Shown here piece by piece: positions 10,957 to 48,031 of a stretch of DNA of 64,000 nt. The notes under the pieces are model-generated. The model was not told the DNA's origin. It was given only the letters and a program-made list of their open reading frames with translations, and made no database searches. How positions within the stretch are numbered: position 1 is the first letter of the stretch; every line of letters starts with the position of its first letter. Source of the DNA: Solirubrobacterales bacterium (GTDB lineage Bacteria; Actinomycetota; Thermoleophilia; Solirubrobacterales; 70-9). The translations under genes were made by a program, and so were the position numbers. The stretch spans positions 26,093 to 90,092 of the forward strand of contig DASUPK010000050.1 in the NCBI GenBank assembly GCA_036276255.1. Direction: 5' to 3'.

Positions 10957-11388
10957 GTGATGGCCGATCTCCACCCCGAGGCCCGCAAGCTGATCGAGTC
11001 AGGACGGCTCGCCCACATGGTCACGCTCAACCCTGACGGTGGCCCCCAGGTGAGCTGCGTCTGGGTCGGCTTGGACGGGGACGACATCGTGAGCGGGCAT
11101 TTGCCGCGCAACCAGAAGGTGAAGAACGTGGAGCGCGACGGGCGCGTGGCGATCTCGATCGAGACGGACACCGTCAGCGAAATGGGGCTGATCGAATACC
11201 TGGTCGTCCGCGGGACCGCGCGGGTTGAGGAGGGAGGCGCGGCGGAGTTGCTGCAGCGGCTCGCGCACACCTACCTCGGGCCGGACGTGAAGTTCCCGCC
11301 CATGGACGACCCGCCCGCCGGATACGTCATCCGGACCACTCCGGAGAAGGTCGGCGGGGTCGGGCCGTGGACGGGCAAGAGCGTCTAG
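10957..11388 (+). CDS. PPOX-class (pyridoxamine 5'-phosphate oxidase-like) probable F420-dependent enzyme
   Basis: 143 aa. LAHMVTLNPDGGPQVSCVWVGLDGDDIV...NVERDGRVAISI pattern of Rv1155-like split-barrel proteins. ATG 10960 is an alternative start. Confidence 0.78.
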   Translation: MMADLHPEARKLIESGRLAHMVTLNPDGGPQVSCVWVGLDGDDIVSGHLPRNQKVKNVERDGRVAISIETDTVSEMGLIEYLVVRGTARVEEGGAAELLQRLAHTYLGPDVKFPPMDDPPAGYVIRTTPEKVGGVGPWTGKSV

Positions 11389-11410
11389 CGGCCACCGGGC
11401 GAAGCCGGGC
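11385..11410 (+). repeat. collapsed short copy of the CTAGCGGCC...GCGAAGCC repeat family
   Basis: CTAGCGGCCACCGGGCGAAGCCGGGC. The family 5' end (CTAGCGGCCACC.GG) is fused directly to the 3' GCGAAGCCG motif. Its TAG is the stop codon of the PPOX gene. Confidence 0.5.
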
Positions 11411-26012: not shown

Positions 26013-27269
26013 ATGCAACAGCTTTCAGAGAACGAGTTCCTGTTCACCTCCGAATCCGTCACCGAGGGCCATCCGGACAAGGTCTGCGACCAGATCTCCG
26101 ACGGCGTCCTCGACGCCGTGATGGCCGAAGACCCCACCGGGCGGGTGGCCTGCGAGTGCCTGGTCAACACCGGGCTCGTGGTGGTCTCCGGCGAGATCAC
26201 GACCGAGACCTACGTGGACATCCCCTCGATCGCGCGCGAGACGATCCGCAAGATCGGCTACGACGATCCCCGCTACGGCTTCGACCACAAGGCCTGTGCA
26301 GTGCTCACCGCCATCGACGAGCAGTCGCCCGACATCGCTCAGGGTGTGGACAAGGGTCTCGAACAGCGCGAGGGCGACAGCTCCGACGAATTGGACTCGG
26401 CCGGCGCGGGCGACCAGGGGATGATGTTCGGCTACGCCAGCCGTGAGACGAAGGCGCTGATGCCGATGCCGATCCAGATCGCGCACCAGCTGGCCCGTCA
26501 GCTCGCCGAGGTCCGCAAGGCCGGCGTGGTCCCGTACCTCGGCCCGGACGGCAAGACCCAGGTCACCATCCGCTACGAGAACGACCGGCCCGCCGAGATC
26601 TCCAAGGTCCTGATCTCCACGCAGCATCGCGAGGAGGCCGGTGAGCAGATGATCCGCAACGACCTCTGGGAGCACGTGCTCGAGCCCGTGCTGCATACGG
26701 AGTACAAGGAGCTCTACACCGAGAAGGAGCTGCTCGCCAGCTTCCTTGTCAACCCGACCGGCAAGTTCGTGATCGGCGGCCCGGTCGGCGACGCCGGCCT
26801 TACGGGCCGGAAGATCATCGTCGACACCTACGGAGGCGCCGCCCGGCATGGCGGAGGCGCGTTCTCGGGCAAGGACCCGTCGAAGGTCGACCGCTCGGCC
26901 GCATACGCGGCTCGCTACGTGGCCAAGAACATCGTCGCCGCGGGCCTCGCAGACCGCTGCGAGATCCAGGTCGCCTACGCGATCGGCGTCGCGAGCCCGG
27001 TCTCGGTGATGGCGCAGACCTTCGGTACCGGGAAGGTCTCGGACTCCGAGATCGCCCGCCTCGTGCAGGAGAACTTCGACCTGCGTCCGGCCGCGTTCCG
27101 CCGCTACCTGGACCTGCACCGCCCGATCTTCCAGAAGACGGCGGCCTACGGCCACTTCGGCCGTGACGACTCCGACTTCACCTGGGAGCGGACGGACCGC
27201 GCGGACACGCTGCGCGAGGCCGCCGGCCTAGCGGCCGACAGGCCGGTCACTTCCGGAGCGGAGGCGTAA
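26013..27269 (+). CDS. metK: S-adenosylmethionine synthase (with 12-aa C-terminal extension read from a repeat element)
   Basis: 418 aa. [29 protein letters not shown]. The tail after ...EAAGL is encoded by repeat copy D. Confidence 0.96.
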
Positions 27270-27326
27270 GCCGAAGCGACTTGCGAGGGTCCGGCCGATT
27301 CGGCCGCGCCTGGTGGCGAAGCCGTC
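27228..27326 (+). repeat. interspersed structured repeat, copy D (full length, most diverged)
   Basis: CTAGCGGCCGACAGG...GCGGAGGCGTAAGCCGAAGCGACTTGCGAGGGTCCGGCCGATTCGGCCGCGCCTGGTGGCGAAGCCGTC. Aligns along its length with copy B (40340-40446). The 5' part lies inside the metK coding sequence. Confidence 0.7.
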
Positions 27327-30080: not shown

Positions 30081-30100
30081 GCGCGACTAGACTCGAAAGC

Positions 30101-30760
30101 GTGGCTGAGGAACACACGAACACCCCCGTCGAAGAGCGCGACGACGAGCTCGCCGAAGAGGCGAGGGAGCCCGAGGGCGTCGACCAGGAGGCGCTCGAGC
30201 GCCGTTCCGCGGCGCTCTCGCTGGTCGTCAAGTACGGCGACCCGGTGCTCCGCTCGGCCGCGTCGCCCGTGACTGAGTTCGACGACGAGCTCGCCGCTCA
30301 GTCGGTGCGAATGATCGGCCTCATGCGCGACGCGATCGGCGTCGGCCTGGCGGCCACGCAGCTCGGCGTGCTCCGGCGCATGCTCGTCTTCCAGGTCGGC
30401 TCGGAGGCCGAGCCGACGGTGCTCGTCAACCCCGAGATCGAGTGGCTCTCCGAGGACGAGGCGACGGCCGAGGAGGGCTGCCTCAGCCTCCCCGGCGTGA
30501 TCGTCGACGTGGATCGCCCGCTCCATGTCAGGGCGCGCGGAGTGGACGTCCACGGCGACCCGATCTGGGTCGAGGCATCGGGCCTGGAGGCGCGCGTGAT
30601 CCAGCACGAGGTCGACCACCTCGACGGAGTGCTGATGATCGACCGCACCGAGCGTGACCAGCGCAAGGGCGCGCTCAAGGCCCTCCGCGAAGGGGGCACC
30701 TACGCCCCCGAGAGTGAGGACGACGGGGGAGATGCCGACGAAGCGTCCACCGAGGAGTGA
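30101..30760 (+). CDS. def: peptide deformylase (with acidic N- and C-terminal extensions)
   Basis: 219 aa. GVGLAATQ, EGCLSLPG and QHEVDHLDG motifs. About 35 extra acidic residues at the N-terminus and about 20 at the C-terminus. Confidence 0.92.
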   Translation: MAEEHTNTPVEERDDELAEEAREPEGVDQEALERRSAALSLVVKYGDPVLRSAASPVTEFDDELAAQSVRMIGLMRDAIGVGLAATQLGVLRRMLVFQVGSEAEPTVLVNPEIEWLSEDEATAEEGCLSLPGVIVDVDRPLHVRARGVDVHGDPIWVEASGLEARVIQHEVDHLDGVLMIDRTERDQRKGALKALREGGTYAPESEDDGGDADEASTEE

Positions 30761-32676: not shown

Positions 32677-33706
32677 TCGCGAGCGAGGCGAGCTCGAGCC
32701 CTTCCTGCGGCGGCTCGCCGCGCTCATCGGCTTGATCGTGGCGGTCCTCCTAGCGGGGAGCGTCGCGTACTCGTTGTCCCAGAACGTCTCCGTTTGGCAT
32801 GGCTTCCTCTTCTCCCTGGACACGGTGGCCACGGTCGGGTCCGCTCCGGAGCCGACTGACCTGCCCGGGCAACTCACCAAGGTCCTGCTGATCGTCCTGG
32901 GCGTGGGTACGCTCTTCTACGCCCTGGTGACGGTGACCGAGTTCTTCGTCGCCGGGCACCTGGGAGAGATTCTCGAGGAGCGCCGAACCCTGAAGAAGAT
33001 CGAAGACCTCAACGGCCACCACCTGATCTGCGGCTTCGGCCGGGTTGGGCGCCAGGTCGCGCGCGATCTTCAGACGGGCGGCGATCGCTTCGTGATCATC
33101 GACAGCCTCGACGAGAACCAGCACATCGCCGAGCAGATGGGTGCGCCCTTCCTGCAGGGCCGCCCCTCCGAGGACGAGATGCTGAAGGCGGCCGGCATCG
33201 AGCGCGCGATCTCCGTCCTCGCCTGCGTCGACTCCGATGCCGAGAACATCTTCACCTGCCTGACCGCACGCGAACTTCGATCAGACATCACGATCGTCGC
33301 GCGTGCGAGCGTCGAAGACTCGGAGAAGAAGCTCCTCCGCGCGGGAGCCGACCGGGTGATCTCCCCCTACAAGTCGAGCGGCGCGGAGATGGCCCGGCTG
33401 GCGCTCCAGCCGCAGGTCACCGGGGTTGTCGACGTCGCCCCCGAGTACCGGATGGAAGAGATCGACGTCAGCGAGGGCTGCCAGGCCGAGGGGATGACGG
33501 TCGGTCAGGTGCGCGGGACCACCTCGATCGCGGCGCTCCGCAACACCGACGGCAAGGTCCATCCCCAGCCGTCGTCGGACGCGGTGCTGCGCGCCGGCGA
33601 CGTCCTGGTCGCGATGGGAACCGTGGAGGCCCTGCGCAAGCTGGAGGCGATGTTCGTCCGGGGAACGGCGCGGAAGTCCGGGTCGGTGCTCGGGGACGTC
33701 GGCTAG
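32669..33706 (+). CDS. two-TM pore ion channel with RCK (TrkA-N/TrkA-C) domains, non-canonical selectivity filter
   Basis: ORF track 32732..33706. Pore region FSLDTVATVGSAP, Rossmann motif ICGFGRVGRQV, TrkA-C region. TM1 and the basic N-terminus (FLRRLAALIG) continue in frame upstream of TTG 32732. The proposed start is CTG 32669, 9 nt after GGAGG. The canonical alternative is 32732. Confidence 0.8.
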   Translation: MLSRERGELEPFLRRLAALIGLIVAVLLAGSVAYSLSQNVSVWHGFLFSLDTVATVGSAPEPTDLPGQLTKVLLIVLGVGTLFYALVTVTEFFVAGHLGEILEERRTLKKIEDLNGHHLICGFGRVGRQVARDLQTGGDRFVIIDSLDENQHIAEQMGAPFLQGRPSEDEMLKAAGIERAISVLACVDSDAENIFTCLTARELRSDITIVARASVEDSEKKLLRAGADRVISPYKSSGAEMARLALQPQVTGVVDVAPEYRMEEIDVSEGCQAEGMTVGQVRGTTSIAALRNTDGKVHPQPSSDAVLRAGDVLVAMGTVEALRKLEAMFVRGTARKSGSVLGDVG

Positions 33707-33779
33707 ACGGCTTCGCCATCAGATCGCGGCTACAAGCGGCCGCCCCCACATAAGTCGCTGCGGGCCTAGTGGCCGCTAG
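33703..33779 (-). repeat. interspersed structured repeat, copy A (short middle)
   Basis: Minus strand reads CTAGCGGCCACTAGGCCCGCAGCGACTTATGTGGGGGCGGCCGCTTGTAGCCGCGATCTGATGGCGAAGCCGTCTAG. It fills the whole gap between the stop codons of two convergent genes. Confidence 0.75.
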
Positions 33780-40147: not shown

Positions 40148-40342
40148 ATGGCCAAGGTCTGTCACAGCTGCGGCAAGCGTCCCGCGTTCGGGAACTCACG
40201 AAGCCACTCGATGGTCGCCACCCGGAGGCGCTTCAACCCGAACCTGCAGAAGGTGCGGATCCAGGAGCCCGGCGGCGGGACCGCGCGCGTGTACGTCTGC
40301 ACGCGATGCCTGAAGTCGAACAAGGTGACCAAGGCCGCGTAG
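40148..40342 (+). CDS. rpmB: 50S ribosomal protein L28 (Cys-containing, zinc-binding type)
   Basis: ATG 40148 within ORF 39956..40342. [36 protein letters not shown]...CTRCLK. Confidence 0.93.
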
Positions 40343-40446
40343 CGGCCACCAGGGCGCTCTCCTCAGGTGCGGAGGGCAAAGCCCGGAGCGGCTTATGATG
40401 GGCGGCCGCTTGTGGCCGCGATCTGATGGCGAAGCCGTCTGCCTAG
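40340..40446 (+). repeat. interspersed structured repeat, copy B (full length)
   Basis: TAGCGGCCACCAGGGCGC...GCGGAGGGCAAAGCCCGGAGCGGCTTATGATGGGCGGCCGCTTGTGGCCGCGATCTGATGGCGAAGCCGTCTGCCTAG. Starts with the rpmB stop codon. Confidence 0.75.
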
Positions 40447-40470: not shown

Positions 40471-42096
40471 ATGGCTGACCCCTCCATAGAGCGATTCCGG
40501 CGCGTGGTCTCCGCGGCGGCCGCTCACCTCGAGGAGCGGCGCAAGGAGGTCAACGACCTCAACGTCTTTCCCGTCGCCGACGGCGACACGGGCGACAACA
40601 TGGCGCTGACCCTGCGGGCCGTCAGCGAGGAGCTCGACCGCCTCGACGGCCAGATGGTCGATGAGGTCGGGCGCACCGAGCTGGTCAACGCGCTCGCGCG
40701 CGCCGCCCTGATGGGGGCGCGAGGGAACTCCGGGGTGATCCTCAGCCAGATCGTTCGCGGCGCCGCCGAGGAGCTCGCCAGCCGGCCGGGCGAGCTCGTC
40801 GACCCGATGCTGGTGTCGGCCGCATTCGCCCGTGCCGCCGACGCCGCCTACGAGTCGGTGCGCGAGCCGGCGGAGGGGACGATGCTGACCGTCTTCCGCG
40901 AGATCGCCCACTCGATCTCGCGCCGCCTCGCGCACATGGAGGAGGTCCGCCTGTCGCCGGATGCCACCCCGGGCGAGCAGGATGCCCTGCTGGCCGAGCT
41001 GCTCGAGGTCGCGGTAAGGGATGGGGAGGCGGCCGTCGCCCGGACTCCGGAGCAGCTCGAGGTGCTGCGCGAGTCAGGGGTCGTGGATGCGGGGGCTCAC
41101 GGAATCGTGGTGATCCTCGCCGGCGTCGTCGCTGGCCTCCGGGGGGACATCGAGGCCTCGCCGCCGGTGCCGCACTACGCGCCCGCGGCGGACACGCGCC
41201 CGCACCACGAGGACAGCCGCTACCGCTACTGCACCAACTTCATCGTCACGGGGACGGGGATGGAGAGCCGCGCTTTCGTGCCGCAGCTGGAGGAGCTGGG
41301 TGACTCAGTCCTGGTCGTGGGCGACGAGGCCACCCTCAAGGTCCATGTCCACACCGACGAGCCCGAGTCGGCGGTTGCCCTCTTCGGCGACTCCGGCGAG
41401 GTCACGCAGCTGGACGTCGCCGACATGCGAGAGCAGATCGCCGAGCGCAGCGCGCGGCTGCAGGCCGGTCGATGCGCGGCCGTGGCGGTGGTGGCCGGCC
41501 GCGGGATGCGGGAGCTCTACGAGGGACTCGGAGCGTTCGTGGTCGACGGCGGCGAGACGTTCAACCCCTCGATCTACGACCTGCTCGCGGCCATCCACGA
41601 GCTCCCAGCCGAGGAGGTGCTCGTCCTCCCCAACAACCCCAACGTGGTGATGGCCGCCGAGCGTGCGGCCGAGCTCTCGGACAAGGAGGCCCGAGTGGTC
41701 GTGTGCACCTCGCAGCAGGCAGGCCTCGCGGCGCTGGTGGAGCTCGACCCCACCGCCTCGGTCGACGAGAACGGCGCGCGTCTCAGCGCGGCGCTCGAGG
41801 GGATCCGGACGGGCTCGGTGGCTCCGGCCGCTCGCGACGACGCCAAGGGGCGCTTCGTGACCGGCGACGCGGTCGGCTTCTTCGGCGACGAGATCGTCGC
41901 CTGGGGCGGGGCCGGCTCAACCCTCTCGGAGACGATGGCGCGGCTGGCCGAGGGCGCCGAGATCCTCACCGTCGTCGTCGGGGACGGGGCGCCGATTCCG
42001 CTCGGCGATCTCGAGAAGCATGCGCCGGAGGGCGTGGAGCTCGAGGTTCATGACGGTGGACAGCCGCACTACTGGTGGCTGTTGGCCGCAGAGTGA
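40471..42096 (+). CDS. DAK2 domain fusion protein YloV
   Basis: 541 aa. NVFPVADGDTGDNM (Dak2 motif) plus a DegV-like C-terminal half. Conserved rpmB-yloV-recG neighbourhood. Confidence 0.88.
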   Translation: MADPSIERFRRVVSAAAAHLEERRKEVNDLNVFPVADGDTGDNMALTLRAVSEELDRLDGQMVDEVGRTELVNALARAALMGARGNSGVILSQIVRGAAEELASRPGELVDPMLVSAAFARAADAAYESVREPAEGTMLTVFREIAHSISRRLAHMEEVRLSPDATPGEQDALLAELLEVAVRDGEAAVARTPEQLEVLRESGVVDAGAHGIVVILAGVVAGLRGDIEASPPVPHYAPAADTRPHHEDSRYRYCTNFIVTGTGMESRAFVPQLEELGDSVLVVGDEATLKVHVHTDEPESAVALFGDSGEVTQLDVADMREQIAERSARLQAGRCAAVAVVAGRGMRELYEGLGAFVVDGGETFNPSIYDLLAAIHELPAEEVLVLPNNPNVVMAAERAAELSDKEARVVVCTSQQAGLAALVELDPTASVDENGARLSAALEGIRTGSVAPAARDDAKGRFVTGDAVGFFGDEIVAWGGAGSTLSETMARLAEGAEILTVVVGDGAPIPLGDLEKHAPEGVELEVHDGGQPHYWWLLAAE

Positions 42097-47465: not shown

Positions 47466-47933
47466 ATGGACGTTCTAGTACTCATCGACAAGCTCGACGA
47501 TCTGGTCCACAACGCGCGGCCCGTGCCGCTCACGGATCAGGTGCGCGTCGATCGCGAGGAGATCTACGACCTCCTCGACCAGATGCGCGCCACGATCCCT
47601 GAGGAGATCAAGCAGGCCCGCTGGATCGTCAAGGAGCGCCAGGAGATGCTCGCCGAGGCGAAGCGCGAGGCCGAGCGGATCGTCAAGGAGGCCCGCGAGC
47701 AGCAGGCCCGCCTCGTCGCGAACGAGGAGATCACGCGTCAGGCCGAGCGAGCCGCCGAGGAGATCGTCGAGGAGGCCCGGGAGCGCGAGCGGGAGATCCG
47801 CCTCGGCGCCGAGGACTACGCCGACGACATCCTCTCGACGCTCGAGGTCAACCTCCAGAAGTTCCTGCAGGCCGTGCAGCGAGGCCGCGACCGGCTTCAG
47901 GGCCGCGAGCGCGAGCCGTCAGAGATTGGCTAG
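47466..47933 (+). CDS. conserved coiled-coil protein (ATP-synthase-b/DivIVA-like heptads), function unknown
   Basis: 155 aa. Highly charged E/R/K/A-rich helix. A similar gene follows coaD in actinobacterial synteny (from memory). Confidence 0.6.
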   Translation: MDVLVLIDKLDDLVHNARPVPLTDQVRVDREEIYDLLDQMRATIPEEIKQARWIVKERQEMLAEAKREAERIVKEAREQQARLVANEEITRQAERAAEEIVEEAREREREIRLGAEDYADDILSTLEVNLQKFLQAVQRGRDRLQGREREPSEIG

Positions 47934-48031
47934 CGGCCACCAGGCCGCAGTAATCGAAGCGGCGGCGTAGCCGCCGCGCCTGACGTGGGCGGCCGCTTGT
48001 GGCCGCGACTTGATGGCGAAGCCGTCACTAG
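47931..48031 (+). repeat. interspersed structured repeat, copy C (full length)
   Basis: TAGCGGCCACCAGGCCGC...GCGGCGGCGTAGCCGCCGC...GTGGGCGGCCGCTTGTGGCCGCGACTTGATGGCGAAGCCGTCACTAG. Starts with the stop codon of the coiled-coil gene. Confidence 0.75.

Follow-up and report, generated by a model that had tools for sequence, protein, structure and literature searches.

A covarying long-range helix that opens at a TAG belongs to a dispersed, structured repeat of Solirubrobacterales

Introduction

A 64,000-nucleotide stretch of a Solirubrobacterales genome (contig DASUPK010000050.1, positions 26,093 to 90,092; the window) contains, within its 64 kb, four copies of an intergenic element, named D, A, B and C in their order along the sequence, and one decayed remnant. 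In each copy the G of a TAG opens an 8-nt segment that is fully or almost fully complementary to a second segment downstream. An earlier note on this DNA proposed that the two segments form a long-range helix including the G of a stop codon. It further proposed that the helix competes with a local hairpin, giving a two-state switch that senses translation termination, or alternatively that the element is a single-stranded DNA (ssDNA) recognition structure. Is the helix real, is a second fold conserved, and what kind of element carries them? We find a real long-range helix whose pairing is selected for. It forms the foot of a single nested fold, in an element that is dispersed and polymorphic.

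Solirubrobacterales are actinobacteria that abound in soil and have hardly any molecular genetics. We found no structured repeat family described for this order in the literature, and the main text of two surveys of repetitive extragenic palindromes (REPs) is silent on Actinobacteria and on the order (PMC3733652, PMC6006769).

Results

The long-range helix covaries in two sets of copies

Four copies are insufficient to decide whether such a match is due to chance, so more were gathered. A genome scan with the conserved 3′ part of the element gave an alignment of 77 distinct copies of about 100 nt (A2). The scan pattern fixed the 3′ hairpin and five bases of the long-range helix (P1), and the test was therefore repeated on a second set of 112 metagenome copies, ascertained solely through the central hairpin.

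In A2, 93.8% of the cells of the nested structure are paired, as against 89.4% after shuffling. Double changes fill 83 cells versus 20.1 in shuffles, where cells count sequences and not events. None of 500 shuffles (0/500) reaches the observed value in any of five measures, and pairing drops to 29–61% in slide controls with shifted partners. The three P1 pairs free of the search pattern occur as CG (59), GC (7), UA (6) and AU (2); as AU (63) and GC (13); and as CG (71), AU (2) and UA (2). The metagenome set behaves in the same way. P1 is paired in 96.6% of cells (85.1% shuffled) with 96 double-change cells versus 20.7, and the next helix inward, P2, in 99.4% (93.1% shuffled) with 31 versus 1.3; 0/1000 shuffles match either helix. 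Across the two data sets, compensatory variants are found at 7/8 P1 pairs and at all 6 P2 pairs. Examples for P1 are GCGACCGC/GCGGTCGC, GCAGCCAC/GTGGCUGC, GCGUCCGU/ACGGACGC and GUGACGGC/GCCGUCAC. Covariation extends to the central hairpin in both independently ascertained sets.

Far from varying independently, the two P1 segments covary strongly in these larger alignments, as the earlier note had proposed from its four copies, and in the nested fold that RNAalifold gives for the collected copies, P1 is the outermost helix. The G–C pair formed by the G of the TAG is invariant (77/77 in A2; 103/103 ungapped metagenome copies), so covariation is silent on that particular pair. In the minimum free energy folds of copies B, C and D this G pairs within P1 with a probability of 0.99–1.0.

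The genome is about 70% GC, GGCCGC-type motifs are self-complementary and the single-sequence z-scores of copies A (−0.7) and B (−2.4) are modest. These points favor the view that GC-rich NotI-like palindromes (GCGGCCGC) match by chance and that no structure is selected. That explanation is refuted by the compensatory changes in both helices, which no shuffle equals, and by the slide controls, and we consider it extremely improbable. The covariation conclusion is robust, since a second, differently ascertained sample reproduces it and the slide controls agree with it.

The local hairpin is a fallback fold

The proposed alternative pairs GCGGCC with the adjacent GGCCGC (A2 columns 79–84 with 91–96). 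As the earlier note held, the bases that covary in P1 lie outside the stem of this hairpin. The hairpin itself shows no double changes in A2, where it is on a par with its shuffles (500/500), and in the independent metagenome set (n = 112) it is again not significant. It is broken at pair 84–91 in 16/76 sequences, precisely where P1 covaries. Its 5′ arm, GCGGCC, has a covarying partner of its own in the P2 5′ strand (the 31 double-change cells versus 1.3 given above), and the conserved state is therefore a single nested fold.

This nested fold is 8–22 kcal/mol more stable than the fold obtained when the first 15 nt are masked. The local hairpin arises just under that masking, and then solely in copies A, B and D; in copy C it does not appear. 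It is a fallback fold and not a conserved alternative. Since it lacks covariation and breaks whenever P1 or P2 covaries, the two-state switch is not supported. In a riboswitch, two mutually exclusive helices would both be conserved; here one of them is.

Anatomy of the element

The consensus reads TAG-CGGCCAC-CA-GGCCGC-(core)-GCGGCC-GCYY-GUGGCCG-CGAUCUGAUGGCGAAGCCGUC. The fold consists of P1 (8 bp, opened by the G of the TAG), P2 (6 bp, extendable), a central hairpin and a separate 3′ hairpin, with a conserved CA/GCNN internal loop between P1 and P2. The P1 3′ strand is followed by a linker, CGAUCUGA, and by the 3′ hairpin GAUGGC-GAA-GCCGUC. In the core, the hairpin stems are GGGC/GCCC, GGCC/GGCC, GGGGC/GCCCC or GCGGCGGC/GCCGCCGC, all covarying, and a symmetric GNA/GNA internal loop together with two outer G–C pairs closes them. 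Central loops are GAA (42), GUA (7), GCA, GGA and GUAA, so that at least 57/65 are G-N-A or G-N-N-A. Both the central loop and the 3′ hairpin loop read GCGAAGC. These loops fit the consensus of extraordinarily stable DNA mini-hairpins, GCGNAGC/GCGNNAGC (PMC13037366).

The 3′ hairpin has a conserved T·G (U·G) pair that is changed to C–G six times, and it shows just one double change in the metagenome set. In unconstrained helices G·T pairs outnumber A·C pairs 16 to 7, which points modestly to folding of the shown strand, as RNA or as ssDNA. The canonical unit is 93–101 nt long in 80/93 copies, and short forms of about 40 nt retain the 20-nt 3′ module. The TAG tag is found in 72/93 copies and TAA-G in 10 more. 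In the 130-nt forms of four loci (L001, L047, L099 and L111), a further GC-rich hairpin (GAGGGCGCGCGCCAGCGCGACCC) is inserted on the 3′ side of the central one.

The 3′ boundary is soft. In the 3′ flanks of about 120 copies, C stands at position +4 after GCCGTC in 66%, and A is frequent at +1 and +2; the element may reach a few bases past GCCGTC. In an unbiased sample (n = 112) the last two bases, TC, are variable (GCCGTC 41, GCCGT- 21, GCCG-- 29).

Several other structures were considered and set aside. A 5′ local hairpin (GCUCCA/UGGAGC), judged by eye, is inconsistent across sub-families. An intrinsic terminator is disfavored by the lack of a T-tract, by 3′ flanks that are not T-rich and by the lack of a terminator-like site over copies A, B and D. 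The 3′ module contains a hammerhead-like CUGAUG..GAA, with an incomplete core and no Rfam match. Rfam 15 gives 0 matches in the window at gathering thresholds; the best permissive match (E ≤ 10) has E = 0.34, at 16–18 bits versus 46 required.

Copies in the window

The positions and pairings that the earlier note gave for the four copies are all correct. Copy D (27229–27326, + strand) is full-length at 98 nt. Its P1 pairs 27231–27238 (GCGGCCGA) with 27300–27307 (TCGGCCGC) at 8/8 positions, and its P2 pairs 27241–46 with 27291–96. The central hairpin lies at 27263–72 (GGC-GTAA-GCC) and the 3′ hairpin at 27312–26 (GGTGGC-GAA-GCCGTC). Copy D takes up the whole metK–bPH_2 spacer, and the stop of the convergent bPH_2 gene (TCA, 27325–27) overlaps its final 2 nt. 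An orthologue with the identical P1/P2 variant is present in locus L035.

Copy A (33706–33778, − strand, 73 nt) has a core shorter by 28 nt than that of its orthologue in L084. It pairs 33776–33769 (GCGGCCAC) with 33733–33726 (GTAGCCGC) at 7/8 positions. Its TAG (33778–76) is the stop of a polysaccharide-synthesis gene, and the TAG of a convergent open reading frame (ORF; 33704–06) shares its last base, so that copy A is wedged between two TAG stops. Copy B (40340–40439, + strand) is full-length at 100 nt and pairs 40342–40349 (GCGGCCAC) with 40412–40419 (GTGGCCGC) at 8/8 positions. Its TAG (40340–42) is the stop of rpmB (L28), and the downstream FakA/DAK2 gene begins at 40471. Its orthologues lie in the same orientation in L050 and inverted in L075. 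Copy C (47931–48026, + strand, 96 nt) pairs 47933–47940 (GCGGCCAC) with 47999–48006 (GTGGCCGC), again 8/8. Its TAG (47931–33) is the stop of a 155-aa ORF, and another TAG follows at 48029–31.

The decayed fifth copy (11386–11409, + strand) consists of TAGCGGCCACC fused to GGGCGAAGCCGGGC and sits at the TAG stop of a PNPOx-like gene; its orthologue L105 has a short form of about 45 nt at the same site. The density in the window is about 1 element per 13–16 kb, and a genome probably contains hundreds of copies. Elsewhere in the window, at 30081–30139, L035 (5024–6130) and L084 (6603–7518) carry about 0.9–1.1 kb that the window lacks.

Stop codons and the 3′ untranslated region

The earlier note took the first paired G to be the G of a stop codon. 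This holds for copies A, B and C. In copy D the TAG (27229–31) is out of frame, and metK enters the element for 13 codons and ends at a TAA (27267–69) in the central GUAA loop; the metK gene of L035 likewise reads into the element, with TAG in the loop. Across the family, 105 of 143 upstream sense frames stop on the element TAG (offset 0; 73%), 9 stop on a TAA one base earlier and about 29 (~20%) run into the element. No sense gene lies upstream in 44/187 assessable copies. A convergent gene end adjoins 59/134 copies, and for 31 of them the stop of that gene overlaps the last 1–2 nt. The 5′ end of the element gives TAG, and its 3′ end, ..GTC followed by TA or by A, gives TAG or TGA to the convergent gene. 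With a crude gene caller, 33 copies lie in convergent contexts and 21 in co-directional sense contexts, and sense orientation prevails 21:5 between co-directional genes.

TAG makes up about 29–36% of stops in the window and about 49% in loci from metagenome-assembled genomes (MAGs; L001–L118), as called by a crude caller based on GC at third codon positions (GC3). This share is unusually high for a lineage of ~70% GC, and the figure may be biased by the choice of loci around elements. Since TAG is a common stop in this clade, the exact abutment and not the codon is the unusual feature. A metagenome sub-family (L148, L166, L184 and L198) has an AAG tag and a P1 of GTGACnnC/GnnGTCAC; by frames read by eye, the upstream gene seems to close with ..AAG TGA, placing its stop inside the compensatorily changed P1.

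Could the element be a host-functional, cis-acting RNA module of the 3′ untranslated region (3′ UTR), possibly a domesticated repeat, that couples termination to mRNA fate? A terminating ribosome would melt P1 and P2, and the outcome would be a two-state switch or simple stalling or 3′-end protection. The hairpin begins at the stop codon in the 73% of copies noted above, sense orientation is favored, G·T exceeds A·C with a conserved U·G in the 3′ hairpin, and orthologous copies conserve their paired sites (see below). The local hairpin also emerges in A, B and D on masking of the first 15 nt. In Escherichia coli, ribosomes stall at REP hairpins that lie <16 nt from a stop codon, and translation is lowered (Liang, Rudd and Deutscher 2015, according to the summary in PMC12306157). 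The present element similarly places a stable repeat hairpin within the footprint of the terminating ribosome, here at distance 0, though the likeness is purely positional. By this analogy, stalling would be the well-founded version of the termination idea in the earlier note. Several facts stand against a 3′-UTR module. The alternative hairpin lacks covariation and is broken where P1 and P2 covary; the inverted copy in L075 has its TAG facing a gene start; ~20% of upstream ORFs run on into the element, as metK does at copy D; and 44/187 copies have no upstream sense gene. Presence or absence at orthologous housekeeping genes shows that the element is dispensable, and it has no Rfam family and no T-tract. 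We regard such a module as unlikely.

The element is dispersed and polymorphic

At least 118 loci were found in MAGs, nearly all titled Solirubrobacterales, by the genome scan, and at least 120 soil metagenome contigs carry the element, for at least 240 loci altogether. Parts of the window have orthologues at five loci. Two of these, L075 and L050, have no element at site C, and there the gene closes with the same TAG. A screen of flanks gave further filled and empty orthologous pairs (L093/L033, L072/L031, L024 versus L013/L080/L062, L027/L029 and L018/L066). In L075 (7391–7488) the element lies inverted in the rpmB–fakA spacer, 10 nt after the rpmB TAG, with its own TAG facing the start of the next gene, which implies independent insertion or inversion in place. 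At a single orthologous site, different genomes carry 36–41-nt, ~100-nt and 130-nt forms and a 250-nt block.

Head-to-tail arrays of 2–3 units with a period of 84–88 nt occur at L185 (760–1023), L131 (2209–2392), L191 (5631–5817), L238 (170–361), L071, L112 and L227, and L061 is listed with L191 among the head-to-tail multimers; all close multimers are of this kind. At the array junction, GATGGCG joins (G)CCACC and about 13 nt (AAGCCGTC-TA-GCG) are missing. A plausible cause is deletion through microhomology, or unequal exchange, between the similar T(A/G)GCG..GCC ends.

Insertion junctions are not uniform. In L093/L033 and L072/L031 two convergent stops abut, and the insert lies precisely where they meet, without a duplication. 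At others, such as window copy C and L018, the original (C)TAG lies 0–5 nt beyond GCCGTC. At three empty sites the stop is TGA, and the same codon is TAG in the filled site. We compared these junctions with those of palindrome-associated transposable elements (PATEs), which are non-autonomous and are moved by IS200/IS605 TnpA-Y1 through ssDNA hairpins. Hairpins are present at both ends and the 5′ TAG is near-universal; two junctions fit such insertion exactly and three do not.

The TAG can also be read as a target TA followed by the first G of the element, mirrored by ..GTC and TA at the 3′ end. The element would then be a classical miniature inverted-repeat transposable element (MITE) of a DDE transposon (IS630/Tc1-like or IS5-like) that targets and duplicates TA or CTAG. 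This accounts for the (C)TAG found 0–5 nt after GCCGTC in window copy C, L018 and many others, and for a TA within 8 nt of the 3′ end in 60/120 copies versus a background of ~1% per position. TAG is read inward from both ends, and the ends share weak similarity (G.CGGC..CCAyCAGryCGC). Against this, the distance from GCCGTC to the 3′ TA ranges over 0–10 nt, the two inserts between abutting stops lack a duplication, and stop codons of convergent genes make up much of the 3′ TA excess. Terminal-inverted-repeat pairing (columns 16–28 with 95–107) gives no signal above shuffles, the ends aligning at ~13/16 positions with 1- and 5-nt indels, and no DDE gene was seen in the loci. A DDE origin is in our judgment less likely still than a 3′-UTR module.

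A candidate autonomous partner, the 1.27-kb filled site of L036/L051, turned out to be an NTF2-like gene and a membrane protein.

Resident copies keep their helices

Between orthologous pairs, paired sites diverge by 5.6–7.2% and unpaired sites by 18–19% (Fisher 5e-9; positions fixed by the scan pattern excluded). Compensatory changes number 11–20 versus 2–5 that break a pair. Unpaired element positions served as the neutral yardstick; codon-position divergence of the flanks was unreliable for this purpose because of frame offsets and GC3 saturation. Unpaired sites differ by 22% between orthologues and by 28% between random family pairs. As orthologues are barely more similar here than the family at large, the copies are old: they diverged together with their flanks, and their helices were kept. 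Gene conversion between copies may have contributed. The roughly 3-fold better keeping of paired sites hints that copies act at their locus, perhaps as 3′ RNA hairpins.

Discussion

The long-range helix proposed for this locus is real; the conserved switch built on it is not. What is the element? The best explanation, with a rough probability of 0.65, is a structured intergenic repeat of ~100 nt that is non-autonomous and is, or once was, mobile, with the helix at the foot of its main hairpin. The repeat would be specific to Solirubrobacterales and closest in kind to the GTAG-tagged REPs. Copies have spread, in both orientations, to the ends of many genes, and the termini of the element abut or replace stop codons. 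Propagation, past or present, would depend on an enzyme that recognizes the folded top strand, most plausibly of the HUH/Y1 type (like RAYTs, the tyrosine transposases associated with REPs), with P1, P2 and the GCGNAGC mini-hairpins as the recognition structure. Recognition of a folded strand would explain both the family-wide compensatory change and the sequence conservation of unpaired bases. The ssDNA recognition structure offered as a fallback in the earlier note is compatible with these findings and remains plausible. Insertions would survive solely at gene ends, where the tag preserves a stop. Once resident and co-transcribed, a copy would present a stable hairpin starting at the stop codon, which probably acts as REPs do, as a 3′ mRNA stabilizer, a brake on termination or both. 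Such action would account for the paired sites kept in orthologues. The repeat is probably of selfish origin, with probable secondary effects at the RNA level.

GTAG-tagged REPs have a tag at the foot of a hairpin with stems of 6–13 bp, complementary sub-families and G·T pairs (Di Nocera 2013, PMC3733652; PMC6006769). Their loops extend up to long self-complementary inserts, they lie downstream of genes and the tag can donate a TAG stop (PMC3733652). Like them and like REPINs, the present element has its tag at the foot of a GC-rich hairpin, and its 8-bp stem is within their range. Its sub-families differ by complementary stem changes with G·T pairs, and its loops run from minimal (CTTG in the short form) to long self-complementary inserts. 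It is high-copy, intergenic, lineage-specific and located downstream of genes or between convergent genes; a flanking ORF takes its TAG stop from the tag, and some copies lie partly within ORFs. The obligatory 3′ module (CGATCTGATGGCGAAGCCGTC) has no REP counterpart, and the host is an actinobacterial order that does not figure in the searched text of the REP surveys. With PATEs the element shares imperfect hairpins on a single strand at (or close to) each end, a short conserved motif on the 5′ flank only, at least two junctions without target duplication and ultra-stable DNA mini-hairpin loops. Unlike PATEs, its hairpin starts directly at the flank motif with no guide or cleavage-site spacing, its end hairpins are dissimilar and no TnpA or TnpB is found near it. 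The DDE-mobilized Correia/NEMIS, RUP and Nezha MITEs resemble it in length (~100 nt), folded transcript, position at gene ends and internal-deletion derivatives; the element differs in having no clear terminal inverted repeats and apparently no constant target-site duplication. We dismissed attC sites, PYLIS/SECIS-like recoding signals and hairpins of diversity-generating retroelements on context, as the genes are housekeeping genes, the element is multi-copy and TAG is replaceable by TAA or TGA.

Several observations weigh against a mobile, REP-like repeat. The unit is ~100 nt with three nested helices, whereas GTAG-tagged REPs are units of 20–40 bp, and its dimers are head-to-tail, unlike the inverted doublets of REPINs. 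The sole close inverted pair, in L118, encloses a PucR-type regulator and is no autonomous partner. The tag is NTAG with a paired G, and its first base (C 50, G 24, T 14, A 5) is not G-specific, so that conservation is limited to TAG within the GT[AG]G tetranucleotide of the REPs. No transposase of any kind was found in the 1.4 Mb of loci covered, <1% of the genomes concerned: no RAYT was seen, and tblastn with an IS200 TnpA sequence, a weak test for divergent RAYTs, gave no IS200-like ORF. Junctions are heterogeneous, with no single insertion signature, and could also fit a DDE element targeting TA or CTAG. The strand asymmetry, in G·T over A·C (16 versus 7) and in the crudely called orientation (21:5), is modest, and the data do not separate selection on RNA, on ssDNA or on both. 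Because copies are related by descent, the cell counts also overstate independent events.

An outcome to which we give a minor share of belief is a domesticated, clade-wide 3′-end module. Purifying selection would keep it folded at each locus, and it would donate stops to one or both convergent neighbors and determine how stable the mRNA is or how efficient termination is, for instance through ribosomes that stall at a hairpin begun inside the stop codon. If true, beneficial REPINs would have a counterpart among Actinobacteria, one that folds much more elaborately and may have a new partner protein other than a RAYT.

The element overlaps the stops of housekeeping genes (such as metK and rpmB), sometimes adds residues to their products and fills convergent spacers, and in this way affects annotation, 3′-end prediction and MAG assembly. 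It provides a large natural covariation data set for a 100-nt fold. If the mobilizing enzyme recognizes the GCGNAGC mini-hairpin as DNA, this would be a new mode of ssDNA recognition. The family is also a test case for whether REP-like repeats are parasites or useful 3′-end hairpins.

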